Source: Octopus sinensis (lineage: Eukaryota). From it: a stretch of 64,000 nucleotides of DNA. A program made the position numbers and the translations under genes. The notes under the pieces are model-generated. The model saw nothing but the letters and a program-made list of their open reading frames with translations. It was not told the DNA's origin and searched no databases. This document shows, in pieces, positions 54,777-64,000 of this stretch. Where the stretch lies: assembly GCF_006345805.1 (NCBI RefSeq), contig NC_043010.1, forward strand, positions 57,474,001 through 57,538,000, given 5' to 3'. Positions within the stretch are counted from its first letter, which is position 1, and each line of letters begins with the position of its first letter.

Positions 54777-55212
54777 TGAATTAGTGGTCTTTTGAATGAA
54801 TTAGAATTGGTCTGTTGTGAGGGGCTGGCCCCTTGGCATCTATAGACATGTCAAATCAATGAGATTGATGCCGTAAATGTTTGGAACTCTGGGATGGTGC
54901 TCTGAGTGAACAACTGCAGGAAATCCATGGAGCAGAGAAGGAATGCCAGGGGGATCAATGTTCCAGCGAGAAAGGACTGGTTGCAGTGTCTGGGGTACTG
55001 GATATAATATCAGGGATAAGACAAGGAGGGACAAGATTACTTGAAGGTCCTTGATGGGAGGTGGCAAGCGACCATATTTGATAGGGGACAAGGACAAAAA
55101 CACAAGACAAATCACCACCACCACCACCACTACCATCATCGTCATCGTCATCATCAACAGCATCATCACCATCGTCGTCGTCGTTGTCATCATCATCATT
55201 ATCATCATCATT

Positions 55213-55249
<37 letters not shown>

Positions 55250-55269
55250 CAACCATCGTCGTTGTGATT

Positions 55270-55465
55270 ATCATCATCATCATCATTTAATGTCTGTTTT
55301 CCATGCTGACATGGGTTGGACTGTTCAAGAGGAACTGGCAAGATGAAGAGCTACACCAGACTCCATTTATCTGTTTTGGATGCCCTTCCTAATGCCAATC
55401 ATCTCACAGAGTTTGCTGAGCACTTTCTCATGTGGTGCTTCTACATGTGGTACTTTTACATGTGA
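55270..55465 (-). mobile_element. RTE 3'-tail module, degenerate
   Basis: (CAT)n-TTAATGTCTGTTTTCCATGCTGACATGGGTTGGA...GGATGCCCTTCCTAATGCCAA. Confidence 0.7.
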
Positions 55466-55689
55466 TGCAGGCACAATTACCTCCGTTATATTTATATCTT
55501 AATGCACATCATAAATGATAAAACAATCATCATAACAAAAATATATTGTTGTTGATGTGAATAACACATTATGATACATATATCAATGTATATCAGCAAA
55601 AATGATGATGAGGAGGAGGAGGAGGAGGAGGAGGAGGATTAATATTATAATTGATATTATTCTTTCTTTTACTGCTGTATTTAGATATT

Positions 55690-56010
55690 GGACTGTGGCC
55701 ATGCTGGGGCACCACCTTGTAAAGGTTAGCCAATGAAATCAACCCCATTGCTTATTATTAAACCTGGTGCAGAGTCTGGAACCTAGTTTATCAGAGTTGT
55801 CTTGGTGGGTGGGTGGGTGGGGGACATAAACAAGCAATGCTCAGTAGTGAGGGACAATTACTAAGACACACACACACACACACACGTCCCACACTCTCCC
55901 TCATTCTCAGCCCAGGTCTATAGTAGAAGATACTCGGCCATGGTGCCATGCTGTGGGACTGAACTGGGAACCATGTGATTGGGAAGCAAATTTTTTACTA
56001 TACATGTGAC
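55690..56010 (-). mobile_element. SINE family A, degenerate
   Basis: GACTGTGGCCATGCTGGGGCAC ... GGTGCCATGCTGTGGGACTGAAC. Confidence 0.65.
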
Positions 56011-56226
56011 ACAGAGACAGGTTTCAGGGATGCAAAGAGGAAAATAGAACTTAAAACATTGGTGTAGATATTTCTTATTTTTTTGGTATTTAATAATCAA
56101 CAGAAGTTCCACCAGAGTGACTCAAGGAGCAAGAGATTCGTGCTGTGAAGATCACCAACGTACAACACTCTCAACCCTTGATTCAGTCTCCAACTTCTGT
56201 TCATTATTATTATCATCATCATTATT

Positions 56227-56711
56227 GAGTGAGAGAGCAGTGCATGCCATCAAAGTGACACTGGGGTACATATATACGAAGCCCAGTACACTCATCATGA
56301 CTACCCGTCTGATAAGGGTACACCAGGCACATACATCACAACCATATGTGTGTGACATTGTGATATCATATCAAGATAAACAGAGCATGATCTTGCAGGT
56401 TGGGTCCAGTTAGAATTTTCTTCTGGTCGAATAACCCATCCTGCTCAAAAGGTCCCTGAATAAGGGTTGTTTAAGGATGTTGAACGAAACACCCATGTTT
56501 CCAGAAGTGAATTATTCAAACCCCAAAGAATCCCTCTCAACACACGGCTATGATGCTCCCCCACTATTTCTGCTTGTGACATATATCATCAGCCACTAAG
56601 GGACATGCTCAACTGGTTAAGGTCAAACAACTGACAAGCAAATCTGTGGTATTGAGCAGAATATTGGCTGGAGCCCATCTTTTATACCAAGACAAAACAA
56701 TGTACATGATA
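56227..56711 (-). mobile_element. Second copy of the (TTA)n-flanked ORF-less element
   Basis: Collinear with 38980-39495; lacks the terminal ~65 bp. Confidence 0.8.
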
Positions 56712-58608
56712 TTATTATTATTATTATTATGTTTGACTTTTGCTTTACATTTGCACAAGCTGGCTCCAAGTCTCAACCCAGCGACCTCAAGAGACAATAA
56801 GTTGGAAGTTCGTGTTGGTGTTATGCCTAGGGTGCCATATATTTGGTTTTGTACTTAGTGTGTACTAGTGAGTGCCTAAAAAACCATACAAAAATTATGT
56901 TTGTTTTAAAACTTGAGATTACATAGAAAGTATTTTGCGTAGGATATGAGCAGTTCCCATGAGCTCTACCTTTTGAATTTCTGCCATTTTGGGGTTTCCT
57001 GGTATCTGAGTTAGGTAGCAATCAGCCCCTTTTGCTATCATTCCCAGGGCACCTATGACAACAGGTATTGTTTTGGTCTTCAGGTTCCACATTTTGCTGA
57101 TTTCTATTTCAAGATCTTTATACTTGCTCAGTTTTTGGTAGGTCTTGACAGATACGTTTATATCGATTGGGACAGTCATATCAATGAGGAGGCATGATTT
57201 TTGTCTGAAGTCTTTCAACATAATGTCTGGGCTATCTGCATGTATCTTTCGGTCAGTTCCAGAGGAGTGAGATGTGGTCATTTTCAAGCACTGGAGTTGG
57301 TTTGTGTTCCCACCAGTTTTTATCATGGGGCAAGTCCAGGTTTTTGCAAATTATCCAGTGAACATATTCAGCTGCTCTATCATGCCTGTTGAGATACTCT
57401 GTAGGCACAAGAAGACTGCACTTGGAGACAACATGATCAATGGTTTCATTTTGCTGTTGACATACACGGCATGTTGGGCAACTGCCGTTCTTTAATATAT
57501 TGGCCTGGTTGTCCTTTGTAGGTCCTTTGTCTTGGGCTGCTATGATAAACCCTTCTGTTTCTGATTTTAAGCCAGAAGACACTAACTATAGATGGGTAAG
57601 GGCTTTGTCAACATCGGCATTATTAGCTCTCTTTGGGTATTTGCCATTGAGAGGTTTTCCTTGCCATTTATCAATAAGAATATCCAAGGCAGCAGTTCTA
57701 GCACTGGTTTTCATGTGCTTAGCTTTTTCTAGGCTTGTTTCCAGTACATCTAATTCTGGGATTTGTTGTATTTGGAATTCACTTAGATATTCCTTTGCCT
57801 GTCTTGTTACTGAGTAAGATGCTTTCTTGTTTTCATATTTTGAGACAAGTTTTAACATCCAGTCCCCAGAGTTTTTCAAGCAGGTGTCTAGGCCAATTGT
57901 AGCAATCTTCATTGTTATTGCCAGTTGTAAAAGTCCATGGCCTCCCTCTTTTCTTGGCAGATAAAGTCGTTCTATATCTGCCTTAGGGTGGTGCATTCTA
58001 TGCATTGTCAACAGTTTTCGTATTTTTCTGTCAAGATTAAATATTTCAGTAATTGACCAGTTAACGACTGGTATGGCTAAAGCATTGATCGCTTCAATCC
58101 TGTTTCTCGCATTCAGCTCTGTCTTGAGTATTGCTCTTACTCTGCGATAACATTCTCTCCTGATCCTTTCCTTCATCACCAAATGCCTGATTCCGTCCCC
58201 TTCAATTACCCCTAGGTATCTGTAGCTCTCCACTGGATCTAACTCTTTTATGACATTCTGCTGGTCGAGGTAAACGTTAGATGTTGCTGTCATTTTTCCT
58301 TTGATAAAGGTAGCTTTTGCACATTTATCAAGGCCAAATTGCATTCTGATGTCAGCACTGAATTGTTTAACAATCGTTAGTAAGCCCTTGAGCTGTTGGT
58401 CATTTTTTGCAAAGAGCTTTAATTCATCCATGTAAATGAGATGATTTATATTTTTATCCAACGTTTTATATCCGTACTGTGCGTCATGGAGAAATTTTGA
58501 GAGAGTTATTAAGGCTAAACAAAAGAGGAGTGGTGATAGTGAGTCACCCTGGAAAATGCCACATGAAATTTTTACACCAACAGCATTTAGAGATGCTTAT
58601 TATTAGAG
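56712..58608 (-). mobile_element. 5'-truncated R4/Dong-clade non-LTR retrotransposon (RT, CCHC, REL endonuclease), disrupted
   Basis: GIFQGDSLSPLLFCLAL, HLIYMDELKLFAK, FGLDKCA, YRYLG, RLYLPRKEGG, CRVCQQQNETIDHVVSKC, RHD, PDIML...LIDMTVP...KLSKYKDL, VVIGALG; (TAA)n at both ends. Confidence 0.93.
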
Positions 58609-58650
<42 letters not shown>

Positions 58651-58654
58651 TAGC

Positions 58655-58937
58655 TAGCGCCGCCTTGATTGGCTTCTGTGCTGGTGGCAAGTAAAAAGCA
58701 CTAACTGATTGTGGTTGTTCTCAGCCTCCTCTGGCCCCTGTGCCAGTGGCACGTAAAAAGCACCCACTACACTCACTGAGTGGTTGGTGTTAGGAAGGGT
58801 ATCCAGCTGTAGAAACACTACCAGATCAGACTGGAGCCTCGTGCAGCCTCCTGGCTTCCCAGACCCCGGTCGAACTGTCCAACCCATGCCAGCATGGAAA
58901 ATAGACGTTAAACGATGATGATGATGATGATGATGAT
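58655..58937 (+). mobile_element. RTE 3'-tail module
   Basis: Close match to 28395-28668 with a (GAT)n tail. Confidence 0.88.
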
Positions 58938-59022
58938 TATTCAGGTCATTGTAAATAATGTACATAATTATGTACATCACTTAAATATAGAACTGTATTA
59001 TGATAATGATGATGATAATATA

Positions 59023-59066
<44 letters not shown>

Positions 59067-59122
59067 GTAATAATAATAATAATAATAATAATAGTAATAA
59101 TAATAATAATATTAACAGTAAT

Positions 59123-59173
<51 letters not shown>

Positions 59174-59179
59174 AATAAT

Positions 59180-59350
59180 CCTTTCTACTATAGGCACAAA
59201 GTTTGAAATTTGGGGGAGGGGGATAGTGAATTACATCGACTGGTACTTAATTTGTTGACCCCAAAAACATGAAAGGTAAAGTTGACCTTCATGGAAATTG
59301 AACTTAGAACATTAAGGTGGACAAAATGTTGCGTAGCATTTTGCCCAGCC
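59180..59350 (-). mobile_element. SINE family B, degenerate (another at about 60220-60400)
   Basis: GACCCCAAAAACATGAAAGGTAAAGTTGACC and GACCCAGAAAGGATGAAAGGCAAAGTTGACCTCAGCAGAATTTGAACTCAGAAC match family B in reverse. Confidence 0.7.
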
Positions 59351-59434
59351 TTTACAGAGACCTAGGCTGTCGGGTTCAGGTAATATTTGCACACACACAC
59401 ACACACACACACCTACACACACACATAGATATAA

Positions 59435-59477
<43 letters not shown>

Positions 59478-59500
59478 TATGCACATACATATACAAATAT

Positions 59501-59655
59501 AGGCTTCTGCACAGTTTCTGCCTACCAAATTTTACTCACAAACGATTGGTTGAGCTGAAACTAAAGGAAGGTCACTTGTCCAAAATGCAGTGAGAACTGA
59601 GCCTGAAACAATTGGTTGCAAAGCAAACTGCTTAACGACTCAACCATACCTGCAT
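59501..59655 (-). mobile_element. SINE family A 5' half, degenerate
   Basis: CAGTTTCTGCCTACCAAATTTTACTCACAA ... CACTTGTCCAA. Confidence 0.6.
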
Positions 59656-59752
59656 CTATATAATTAGTATCATAATAAATATCTTAATATGTATATCATA
59701 ATAGTTGTCATATTACAAGTCATAAGAAATAGGGATTTAAATTAGTACCACC

Positions 59753-59788
<36 letters not shown>

Positions 59789-59849
59789 TATTGTCACTCT
59801 TATTGCCATCATCATCATTATCACTATCACTGTCATCATCATCATCATT

Positions 59850-60122
59850 TGTGGTCATTGCCAATGCCGCTGGACTGGCTCCTGTGCAGGTGGCACGTAA
59901 AAAGCACCTTTTGAGCATGGTCGTTGCCAGAACCGCCTGACTGGCCCTCATGCCAGTGGCACGCAAAAGCACCCACTATACTCTCAAAGTGGTTGGCATT
60001 AGGAAGGGCATTCTAGAATGTAGAAACTCTGCCAGATCAGATTGGAGCCTGGTGCAGCCTTCTGGCTTGGCAGTCCTCAGTCAAACCGTCCAACCCATGC
60101 CAGCATGGAAAGCGGACATTAA
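59850..60122 (+). mobile_element. RTE 3'-tail module
   Basis: Two GGCACGyAAAAGCACC motifs, AGGAAGGGCAT, CCATGCCAGCATGGAAAGCGGAC. Confidence 0.85.
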
Positions 60123-60407
60123 TAGTTAATATTTAATGTATTCCCATAGATTACACATATCAAAATTAATTTCATAATTAATATAGCAAAATATGATAAT
60201 TAGTCATATAATAGCAATCTTTTCTTATTTTTGCACAATGCCTGTACATCTGAGGAGAAGTCGATTATGTTGACTCAAATGCTAAACAGGTCCCTATTTT
60301 ATCGACCCAGAAAGGATGAAAGGCAAAGTTGACCTCAGCAGAATTTGAACTCAGAACATAAAGATGTACTGAATGCTGTTGAGCATTCTGACCAGCATGC
60401 TAAGGGT

Positions 60408-60551
60408 TCTAGACACAAGCTGGGGTTTGATCAGACCCAGCTGGGTCACTTCGAGGGGGTGGGGTGTATGATGTCGAGAGACCCGAAACACCTGATGAGA
60501 CAAGGTACATCACTGAAGATGTGTCCAGGTGCATCAGTCATTGATGTACGT
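60408..60551 (+). mobile_element. Short 3'-UTR-like retroelement remnant (recalled as resembling HERO-type non-LTR 3' UTRs) ending in (AAG)n
   Basis: AGCTGGGGTTTGATCAGACCCAGCT hairpin, then GGGTGTATGATGT..GACCCGAAACACC..ACATCACTGAAGATGTGTCC; the family assignment is from memory and needs a Repbase/Dfam check. Confidence 0.5.
60462..60525 (+). ncRNA. Non-circularly permuted hammerhead ribozyme candidate
   Basis: All core nucleotides present (GUA, CUGAAGA, GAAA) with three complementary stems in knotted order; see findings. Confidence 0.7.
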
Positions 60552-60946
60552 AAGAAGAAGAAGAAGAAGGAGGAGGAGGGGGAGGAGGAGGAGGAGAGGA
60601 GAAGAAGAAGAAGAAGAAGAAGAGAGAGAAGGAGAGGAGAAGGAGGAGGGAGAAGGAGGAGGAGGAGGAGAAGAAGAGAGGAAGAAGAAGAAGAAGAAGA
60701 AAAAGGAGGAGGAGGAGGAGAGAAGAAGAAGAAGAAGGAGGAGGAGGAGGAGGAGGAGGAGGAGAAGAAGAAGAAGAAAAAAAGGAGGAGGAGGAGGAGA
60801 GAAGAAGAAGGAAGAAGAAGAAGAAGAAGAAGAAGAAGAAGAAGAGAAGAAGAAGGAGGAGAGGAAGAAGAGGAGAGAAGGAAGAAGAAGGAGGAGGAGG
60901 AAGAGCAGGAGAAGAAGAAGAAGAAGAAGAAGAAGAAGAAGAAGAA
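60552..60946. repeat. (GAA/GGA)n polypurine tract
   Basis: About 395 bp of almost pure purine. Confidence 0.96.
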
Positions 60947-61145
60947 TGATATTAACAATAATAATAATGATAAATAAATAGAAGGGTGCCATAGTTAACA
61001 TGTGAAATTGGTTGAACGATATTTCGGCATCTAGCGTTGCCTTCCACAGGTTCAAAAATAACATGTCACTCTACTTCATTTCTTGTTAAGACTATAATAG
61101 GACCTGGATAACTTCTGGATGACTTACCTCTGTCCTATATAGTCT

Positions 61146-61176
61146 TAATAATAATGATAATAATAATAATAATAAC

Positions 61177-61254
<78 letters not shown>

Positions 61255-61298
61255 TAATAACAATAATAATAATAATAAAATAATAATAATAAACATAA

Positions 61299-61332
<34 letters not shown>

Positions 61333-61387
61333 TAATAATAATATATAACAATAATAATAATATAATAATAATAATAATACTAATAAC

Positions 61388-61431
<44 letters not shown>

Positions 61432-61465
61432 TAATAACAATAATAATAATAATAATGATAATAAT
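61146..61465. repeat. (TAA)n microsatellite
   Basis: Direct inspection. Confidence 0.96.
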
Positions 61466-62517
61466 TAAGTTACTGTTGTTGTTTAGAGACAAACTTTCCT
61501 CCATCTTCCCCTCTCCTCCACACTAAAAATAGACGTTGATGGTTAGTAAAGTATGACATACCTGAGTTAATTAATCCTCAGCACTGTCTCATCCAGGTAA
61601 ATACGCCACACTGTGTCAGACTGTGTCACACTGTGCCACACCGCACAACAACAGAGAACACACGCTGTCTTCCTTGCAACTCTGACAGATGTGCGGCAAC
61701 GTTGCGCTGGTGCACCTTAACGGCCAAACTCTTATCTCAGCGTCCCCTGTGCATACGAATGCATTTCAGCAGTGCAGTGGTGGGGTGGGGAAATTACCAG
61801 CATGCAGTGAAGGCCAGCTGCATGTCTGTGTGCTGTATATGTGTGTGTGTGTGTGTGTGTACCTGTATGTCTTTATGGTGGCTATGTGTGTGTGTGCAGC
61901 TTGTGCAAGTATGCACTATTAATGTGCATGTGTGTGTGTATGTATGTGATGAGAGTGCGTGCTGCATGTTTTGTGCATGTACCTTGTCTATATATGTGTT
62001 TATGCATGTGTGAGTGTGTGTGTGTGTGTCATGCATGTGTGTACAGTCCATGTGTGTTGCATATTACATGCTATGTGTATATGTGTGAGTATATGTGTAT
62101 AATAATCATTGTGTTTATGTATGTTTACATGTATATATTTGTGCATAAGATTTGTATGTGTATATGTGTATATATACATGTCTAGTTGTGCTGTGTATAT
62201 GCATACATCTATAACTGCACATAACCAAACAGGAAATATATGTATGTGTATGTATACACACACACACGTATACTTGTATATGTGTGTGTATATATAAGTA
62301 TATATGTATATATACTTGGAAATAAATGTGTGACATTCGGTCATATAATGATATAAAAAATATATAAATATATGCATATATACATACATACATGTACATA
62401 CCTACATATATATGTATATATACATGCATATATGGGTGCATGTATATATACATATATATGTAGGTATACATGCATATATTTATATATTTTTTATTATTAT
62501 ATGTAATATATGTATAT

Positions 62518-62605
<88 letters not shown>

Positions 62606-63229
62606 TATATATATACACTTATGGAAATACTTGCAAATGTCATACATATAGCAAATATAATGAAACAAATTTTCACAACATATACACAGAAACATACATA
62701 CATATATACTTACACACACATACCCACACACAAACATACACGCACACAAACACATCGCACGTTTATACACACATATATTCATTCTCTTACGACACACAAA
62801 ACATAAACACTTCTGAATCTGTATTGACACAAACAGACTCTGCCATGTATACATGAGTGTATATATATACATACACACGGCTCTACTAATATACATACAT
62901 GTGTATGAATGTTTGTGTTTACACATGATGGAGTGAATTTGTTTATTTAGTTTCCCCCCCTTCTTGACTTGAATAAAAACAAGAGACAGTCAGACATGTG
63001 TGCTGACAGACAGACAGAGAGAAGACAGACAGATACACGGACATAGCCGCATCCAGGTTTTCTGATATACAGGAAACCTACAGAGAAGAGAGAGAGGGAG
63101 AGAGAGAGAGAGAGGGAGAGAGAGAGAGAGAGAGAGGGAGAGAGAAAGACAATGACAGAGACAAAGACAGACAGATAGATAGAGAGGTAGGTGGATAATA
63201 TAATATATATATATATATATGTATGTATG

Positions 63230-63263
<34 letters not shown>

Positions 63264-63278
63264 ATATATATATAAGAG

Positions 63279-63325
<47 letters not shown>

Positions 63326-63346
63326 TGTATATATATATTATGTATG

Positions 63347-63389
<43 letters not shown>

Positions 63390-63397
63390 ATATATAT

Positions 63398-63447
<50 letters not shown>

Positions 63448-63504
63448 GCATTTCTGCATCATCTCATACACACACATATACACATAGATGACATGTACAG
63501 AAAA

Positions 63505-63547
<43 letters not shown>

Positions 63548-64000
63548 TGTGTGTGTGTGTGTTTGTGTGTGAAAGTGGAGTGTAGAGGGGAGAAATGATG
63601 GAGAATTAATTGAAAACCTTGTCCAAACATAAAAGTCAATGTAAACCCCTTCCTCTCACCATTCCTCCTTCTATTTACTTCCTCCACTTTCCCTTACACA
63701 CTCACACACACACGCACACACACTTTCTCTCTCTCTCTCTTCCTCTCAATATTTATTACTGTCACCCCCTCTCTCTCTCTTTCCTGTCTGTCTTCCTCCT
63801 CCCCCTCACACTAGTTTCTCCCCTCTCTCTCTGCTTTCTACATCCCATTCCCATTTCCCCCCTCTCCCACTCTCTATTTCTCATTTCTCTTTCCTCCCAT
63901 ATTCTCCCTCTCCTTTACTCTCACCACACTCCCTCTTACTACTCCTCTAATCCCCTCTTATACCCATATTTGCACCGCCACTTTCTTCCCTCACCCATTC

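Follow-up and report, generated by a model that had tools for sequence, protein, structure and literature searches.

A knotted four-block hammerhead-like motif in the 3' UTR of HERO-like retrotransposons, predicted to self-cleave and possibly linked to a circular RNA

A HERO-like 3' UTR fragment in Octopus sinensis

The stretch of Octopus sinensis DNA analyzed here (64,000 nucleotides of contig NC_043010.1, positions 57,474,001 to 57,538,000; hereafter the window) contains a 5'-truncated copy of a retrotransposon without long terminal repeats (non-LTR), of the restriction-like endonuclease (RLE) type, of which only the 3' untranslated region (UTR) is present (Table 1). The copy is 144 bp long, with its 5' truncation at the start of a complex fold, and carries the pieces of a hammerhead ribozyme in the order S-G-C, matching none of types I, II and III (the circular permutations CGS, GSC and SCG). 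On balance we favor the reading that it is a decayed fragment from a lineage whose S-G-C core, completed by a fourth strand upstream, is predicted to self-cleave, likely giving a circle that is reverse transcribed.

The non-circular order was pointed out in a preliminary description of this DNA, and all of the segments listed there lie where it placed them: GGGTGT at 60462-60467, A60468, TGATGT at 60469-60474, GACCC at 60480-60484, GAAA at 60485-60488, ACACCT at 60488-60493, ACATCA at 60507-60512, CTGAAGA at 60513-60519 and TGTGTC at 60520-60525, followed by CAGGTG at 60526-60531 and TGATGTAC at 60542-60549. Stem III has 6 bp, including one G-U, and stem I also has 6 bp. The window contains a single S-G-C core whose stems III and I have 5 or more pairs, against 0.05 per shuffled window (40 block shuffles, both strands scanned), a count that by itself is only modestly above chance. 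A chance origin is nonetheless ruled out by the evidence from the family given below (tail parses, a letter-blind search and covariation), and the motif is real.

Within its own genome (2.7 Gb) the segment 60408-60552 has 41 matches, 78-89% identical apart from itself; compared with one of its relatives, L006, the window copy is 84% identical and contains a 4-nt insertion. It is a fossil, and the finding is one about the family.

The DNA upstream of the motif in other copies encodes a CCHC knuckle and an RLE, ending just before the motif. Identity of the RLE domain reaches 85-86% with retrotransposon proteins of fish and 63% with the Takifugu reverse transcriptase (RT) BAC82598.1. The latter, which we take to be HEROFr (AB097130), falls among the motif-bearing loci in a weak RLE tree; the family name HERO is likewise in part presumptive. 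Matches of the relatives are to Pfam RVT_1 and zf-RVT only, with an RLE and no GIY-YIG endonuclease. Their single open reading frame (ORF) with RT, CCHC knuckle and PD..D endonuclease has the R2-group (RLE) layout, and is intact in L091, L096 and L105 (1112-1126 aa). Copies are dispersed with unrelated flanks, showing no specific target site. The suggestion that this is a HERO-type non-LTR 3' end is probably right. The same single-ORF R2-group layout is given for HERO in the available text of its descriptions (PMC2790886, PMC3636483), the first of which has no Cys-His motif upstream of the RT for the clade (PMC2790886); the N-terminal DNA of L166 and L091 reads by eye as a CxxC...H...C motif.

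We note that in the RLE domain the family of the window copy (L022:1648-1980) shares 85-86% identity with elements from several bony fish, that it groups with L091 (support 100/99), and that other families of the same genome are 34-47% identical. This hints at horizontal transfer of the window's family.

Table 1. Coordinates within the window of the retrotransposon copy, the parts of its fold and neighboring features
Feature	Position	Strand	Remarks
RLE (HERO-like) non-LTR retrotransposon copy	60408..60552	+	5'-truncated, 3' UTR only; GAA/GGA microsatellite follows
X strand	60409..60417	+	pairs with 60520-60528 (8/9 here); encloses the motif
Hairpin H	60418..60442	+	abuts X and Y with zero unpaired bases (perfect four-way junction); pair probability 1.0 in this copy
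Y strand	60443..60447	+	proposed 10.x strand of stem II, G60443 being G10.1; 5/5 pairs with 60480-60484
Z strand	60449..60453	+	pairs with 60501-60505 (4/5 here, decayed)
Block S	60462..60468	+	5' strand of stem III plus the GUA triplet; cut predicted after A60468
Stem I 5' strand	60469..60474	+	pairs with 60507-60512
Block G	60480..60493	+	11.x strand (Y partner), G12-A13-A14-A15.1, stem III 3' strand
Z partner strand	60501..60505	+	
Block C	60507..60519	+	stem I 3' strand and CUGAAGA; ends at A9
X partner strand	60520..60528	+	directly after A9; stem II strand of the preliminary description
3'-terminal hairpin	60530..60548	+	7 bp, 5-nt loop; computed fold
Broken R2-group element	56919-58596	-	unrelated to the copy above; RT, CCHC, PD..D; between ATT microsatellites
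SINE-like repeat fragment	58690-58912		
SINE-like repeat fragment	59870-60120		
SINE-like repeat fragment	60230-60400		

Conservation and covariation of the motif

A second, young family in the same genome, with 38% protein identity, has the same S-G-C order, but its stems I and III differ in sequence and its site is GUC. Common to both families is an upstream segment consisting of strand X, hairpin H and strand Y, in which X pairs with the strand that follows CUGANGA and Y with the strand that precedes GAAA. For one family 2202 first-look candidates were obtained, and a scan of metagenomes yielded 74 related loci, which after removal of seven with tails shorter than 120 nt left 67 usable 3' tails. 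The core with stems I and III is present in 33 of these, the full X/H/Y arrangement in 30, and 28 of those 30 have no junction bases at all. The full parse was found in none of 67 reverse strands, none of 65 upstream ORF stretches and one of 2010 shuffles. A relaxed parser fits 31 of the 67 tails; BLAST links another 24 to a parsed motif and leaves 12 without such a resemblance. In a separate parse three loci (L140, L144 and L152) were misparsed. Four old, divergent families of the same genome (L052, L053, L055 and L057) contain only decayed traces of the motif. Among viral contigs there were 81 pattern matches and no relatives, and in prokaryote genomes only one spurious 11-residue match.

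Covariation was assessed in two structure-blind alignments, one of 37 MAFFT-aligned sequences (A3) and one of 10 sequences of a second lineage group (A4). Together these comprise 47 near-complete motifs, leaving aside L122 and L124, tails that are truncated, and the 12 that gave no match. Paired cells amount to 89% in A3 and 87% in A4, with 28-53% in slid controls, and 30 of 36 pairs (A3) and 15 of 32 (A4) change on both sides. Helix X is 87.5% paired in A3, with two-sided change at all seven of its pairs, and 70% in A4; helix Y is 89% paired in A3, with two-sided change at four of five pairs, and 85-90% in A4; helix Z is 85-92% and 80% paired. Stem III is 94% paired in both alignments and stem I 91% and 100%, and both have two-sided changes in A3, so that two of the three crossed stems first proposed are upheld by covariation; the third, a stem II formed directly between the strand before GAAA and that after CUGANGA, is not (see below). 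Representatives of the motif-bearing lineages share 31-68% protein identity.

The motif as a probable four-block hammerhead

A descriptor consisting of helices and spacings without any letters scored at least 25 in 28 of the 67 tails, and 27 of these hits fall on the hammerhead core; the other, in L129, is a false hit found by structure alone. Only 3 of 402 shuffles reached this score. Among the 27 core matches GAAA is present in 26, CUGANGA in 25 and U16.1 in all, with all four bases occurring at N7 and G at H17 once. The core positions C3, U4, G5, A6, N7, G8 and A9, G12, A13, A14 and A15, U16 and H17 are all present (letter-blind search and 10 cluster representatives), as the preliminary description had recognized in the window copy. 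This is the hammerhead consensus of Perreault 2011, in which, in the available text, 10.1-11.1 is the most conserved pair after 15.1-16.1 (PMC3088659).

That pair is provided here by Y. Y begins with G in 32 of 32 cases, opposite C in 28 and T in four (the misparsed L157 being left out of this count), and this G-C remains constant while the remainder of Y varies. The 10.1-11.1 pair thus stands next to G12, with a G that is not covalently adjacent to A9. Because of the core consensus and the constraint on this first pair we assign stem II to Y and regard the motif as a hammerhead of four blocks whose core is interrupted between A9 and G10.1; the helix of Y and the strand before GAAA is, from these sequence patterns, most likely stem II. 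X, H, Z and stem III would form a nested frame crossed by two helices, stem II (Y) and stem I, an arrangement that covariation supports, and we hold the four-block fold so described to be very likely.

Standard models do not recognize the motif: there is no Rfam hammerhead match in window positions 55000-64000 at E values up to 5, nor at the gathering score in eight related loci.

Insertion ends and terminal repeats

In the second family 40 scored loci span a junction from 3' UTR to 5' UTR. Thirty loci of this family, chosen by the 5' UTR alone, represent 18 independent 5'-complete events, of which three start inside the 5' UTR, two at the junction, two in the UTR past the predicted cut and 11 upstream of the cut, by 16 to about 860 nt. 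At the 3' end, 28 of the 30 loci read 2-9 nt into 5'-UTR sequence and the other two run on fully. Full-unit terminal repeats of 180-986 bp are present in six of 18 loci examined, and head-to-tail junctions occur in four families (the second family, family 1 in L233/L253, and contigs L096 and L105). The two repeats of one locus share 21 minority variants, where 3.4 are expected. Since insertions span the junction and 3' ends read into the 5' UTR, the template ran unbroken through the junction as well as the cut site.

Contig L105 starts one nucleotide after the predicted cut and was considered as a cleaved 5' end; this was rejected, since the position is the end of the contig, L096 begins 22 nt before the cut, and no genomic 5' end of the 18 events is at +1. 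Contigs from four RNA runs cover the tail of the second family and are uninformative as to RNA ends.

Four families have 5' UTRs that begin, right after the junction, with similar short repeats (GTGAC..., GGAAAGAC; L253:612-740, L096:101-230, L105:79-210 and L062:1729-1860), which are candidates for an internal promoter or a protein site.

Internally deleted copies with units of approximately 0.7-1.4 kb (L239, L241, L242, L246, L247, L251 and L253) still have the 5' UTR and the 3' end along with the head-to-tail junction, which is the terminal-repeat layout of full copies, and these are possibly non-autonomous, retrozyme-like derivatives. Twelve loci with the same flank (L217-L224, L226-L228 and L231, on contig C18 and small contigs) represent one insertion, a segmental amplification that carries an element of the second family.

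Proposed mechanism and alternatives

We consider it probable that the motif self-cleaves. In the RNA the backbone would be broken between A9 and G10.1, with A9 leading into helix X and G10.1 reached from hairpin H. Stacking would be expected between X and H, and between Y and the core with stem III, and Z would connect the far ends of stems II and I, perhaps as the equivalent of the tie between stems I and II in published relatives. A locus with head-to-tail redundancy would be transcribed through two motifs, and cuts after the NUH triplets would free a unit-length RNA of about 3.7 kb with a 5'-OH and a 2',3'-cyclic phosphate, to be ligated into a circle. Within the circle, slightly beyond the apparent 3' end by a few bases, the protein of the element would then start target-primed reverse transcription; the 3'-terminal hairpin of the computed fold is a candidate start signal, and minimum free energy (MFE) folds place a downstream hairpin of differing sequence in most lineages. 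Most complementary DNAs would stop early, as in the window copy, and some would exceed one turn and rebuild the terminal repeat. Two cuts and a ligation would explain why the catalytic letters are kept, why integrated sites are uncut, why copying starts internally and how the repeats are regenerated. We put the use of a circular RNA template at about an even chance. The full proposal is more tentative and falls somewhat short of that: that HERO-like elements are autonomous long interspersed nuclear elements (LINEs) moving via a circular RNA of about 3.7 kb that a four-block hammerhead common to the clade produces, with a core broken at A9/G10.1 and stem II formed via a perfect four-way junction (a seventh natural connectivity), and with terminal repeats arising by rolling-circle reverse transcription.

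A number of observations weigh against this proposal. As regards the insertions, none of 23 copies of family 1 ends at the predicted cut, 20 running 67-99 nt past it and three stopping 93-188 nt before it, and none of the 18 5'-complete events begins at +1; copies without ends at the cut fit religation and equally fit no cutting. In the comparison of terminal repeats 44 minority sites are unshared and the background is biased to one subfamily, and the 3' repeat of a locus is the closest to its own 5' repeat in only one of 11 loci. As regards the fold, pairs in X, H and Z are gone from the window copy, all core letters are kept in only 15 of 28 family-1 copies, and nested MFE folds, to which pseudoknots are inaccessible, rarely form Y and stem I. 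The parsers themselves select for pairing, the cells counted, uncorrected for relatedness, belong to related sequences in only about ten motif clusters, and the RLE tree is mostly unresolved, with L160 an outlier row that is probably out of frame. Twelve of the 67 tails gave no motif at first pass; on re-examination L121 has a decayed motif, the parse of L133 is a spurious one in the ORF, and ten show none within the DNA at hand. Finally, the literature searched yielded no earlier case of a helix junction placed at A9/G10.1.

The main rival is a docking fold combined with template jumping, in which the motif is a hammerhead-derived scaffold that does not cleave, its junction disabling catalysis, and serves as an RT docking site in the 3' UTR as in R2, with the repeats made by template jumping or by read-through of tandem loci. 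The R2 enzyme is known to continue across non-continuous templates, and the site is uncut in all integrated copies. In the available parts of the reports, the R2 protein binds its own 3' UTR and so places the RNA for target-primed reverse transcription (PMC13580325), and hammerhead mutants of a Penelope-like element are without effect on insertion in vitro (PMC11167929). We nevertheless regard this as unlikely, if the most serious of the alternatives, because it leaves unexplained why every catalytic position, the freedoms at N7 and H17 and the G10.1-C11.1 pair are kept across lineages while the helices turn over. The junction sequence, moreover, does not differ between independent events and is read into at 3' ends, and so belongs to the template.

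The preliminary description had proposed a three-block ribozyme in which stem II joins the strand before GAAA directly to that after CUGANGA, with alternative pairings as inhibitory folds; in such a model the pairing of X and Y would be an off switch. X and Y compete with a direct stem II, and the G-C constraint at the first pair of Y and the terminal repeats argue that Y takes its place. In the window copy four of five such pairs form after an extra U, the second being a mismatch, and the group of family 1 has a G after this U, permitting four of five pairs (67% paired), like the published CUGAUGAUG pattern. The second pair fails in 33 of 37 sequences, however, and in the second lineage group the first pair forms in none of 10 and the helix is 14% paired, the core nonetheless being intact; the second family has C-runs on both sides. 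A direct first G-C is available in five of 11 clusters, and at least three contiguous direct pairs in only two of the 33 core-bearing tails. The pairing of GGGTC with GACCC, described as inhibitory, is the conserved and covarying helix Y, most likely stem II itself. Of the downstream pairings, that to stem III reaches 6 bp only in the window copy among 14 sequences tested, and that to stem I reaches 6-8 bp in four of the 14; the switch is unsupported because these alternatives are mostly private to the window copy. We therefore consider an active direct stem II improbable, and note that the trimmed construct suggested with it (60455-60525) lacks the Y and X strands.

Least probable, by a little, is cleavage that only destroys or trims read-through or surplus transcripts (either to limit the element itself or to take off the 3' priming signal), with uncut RNA alone transposing and no circle formed: a cut would indeed part the ORF from the terminal hairpin, and rearranged hammerheads are slow in the accessible data (0.004-0.19 per min; PMC10085705), but the more-than-unit-length insertions in four families are left unexplained.

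Relationship to known ribozymes and elements

Eckert et al. 2023 treat hammerheads as three blocks, C, G and S, which in the accessible text are assumed to be uninterruptible, and validate the order SGC with 583 metatranscriptome sequences, none of them from known genomes (PMC10085705). The S-G-C order alone was therefore already known, and the statement in the preliminary description that non-circular permutations had recently been reported is correct. As given in the available sections, the type-SGC RNAs (HRIMA-1 and variants) share with the present motifs the block order, a complete core, stems I and III that cross, a helix linking the far ends of stems I and II and usually a U after A9, an extra U at the A9/10.1 linkage being tolerated by active RNAs (PMC10085705). 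They differ in that their stem II joins G to C directly, whereas here a fourth, upstream strand is brought in via a four-way junction, and in that they come from metatranscriptomes rather than animal retrotransposons. The fourth block lies outside the six permutations of that scheme. The published SGC patterns, so far as available, need CUGAUGA(U)G and a direct stem II and would miss most of these motifs.

SGC-1/2 RNAs (PMC10085705, as far as available) and the tails of L091-L095 have in common an ATGTT/AACAT stem I, GACC before GAAAC and a U after A9; these letters could reflect either shared ancestry or coincidence.

Penelope-like elements and non-LTR retrozymes, in the available portions of their descriptions, similarly have a hammerhead in a terminal repeat, partial tandems and an internal start of reverse transcription, with a circular RNA made with RtcB that is proposed or shown (PMC6765202, PMC7229834, PMC11167929, bioRxiv 10.64898/2026.07.22.740005). 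Their hammerheads are small and of type I, and they encode a GIY-YIG nuclease or no protein, in contrast to the RT, CCHC knuckle and RLE and the knotted four-block core in the 3' UTR found here. Tandem and terminal redundancy spanning the ribozyme, as in those elements, is present. R2, L1Tc and other LINEs with ribozymes resembling that of hepatitis delta virus (HDV) are comparable in their R2-group protein layout, structured 3' UTR and use of a ribozyme in processing a co-transcript (PMC6765202, PMC13580325, as accessible). There the ribozyme is HDV-like, sits at the 5' end and releases a linear RNA, whereas the present motif is of hammerhead type, is located 3' of the ORF and is traversed by insertions.

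The HERO clade itself (HEROFr, HERODr and HEROTn) is described as having a single ORF with RT, CCHC and PD..D and no target specificity, and as common in fish, and the accessible text of these descriptions mentions neither a ribozyme nor a terminal repeat (PMC2790886, PMC3636483, PMC9004415). A HERO hammerhead or a four-block form was not found in the literature searched, which was mostly outside subscription papers, Repbase reports and Weinberg 2015, nor did that literature yield a description of a circular-RNA lifestyle for RLE (HERO-like) elements. Weinberg 2015 is cited for hammerheads with additional helices, and a variant with an extra helix at this linkage may already have been published. 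A text search of the whole supplement of Eckert et al. 2023 returned no HERO (PMC10085705).

If the motif cleaves, the six-permutation scheme of hammerheads is incomplete, animal genomes hold thousands of copies of a non-circular permutation that standard models have overlooked, and an R2-group retrotransposon gains a circular life cycle like that of Penelope elements and retrozymes, which would also account for insertions that have terminal repeats and whose sites are uncut. If the motif is not cleaved, an ancient ribozyme fold has been kept as a protein-docking site, which is likewise unusual.

Neighboring features of the window

The insertion in the window is flanked by three fragments of repeats resembling short interspersed nuclear elements (SINEs; Table 1), two of which are related copies with GAT repeats or AT-rich DNA after them. 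The broken R2-group element on the minus strand presumably resembles elements of the R4/Dong type.
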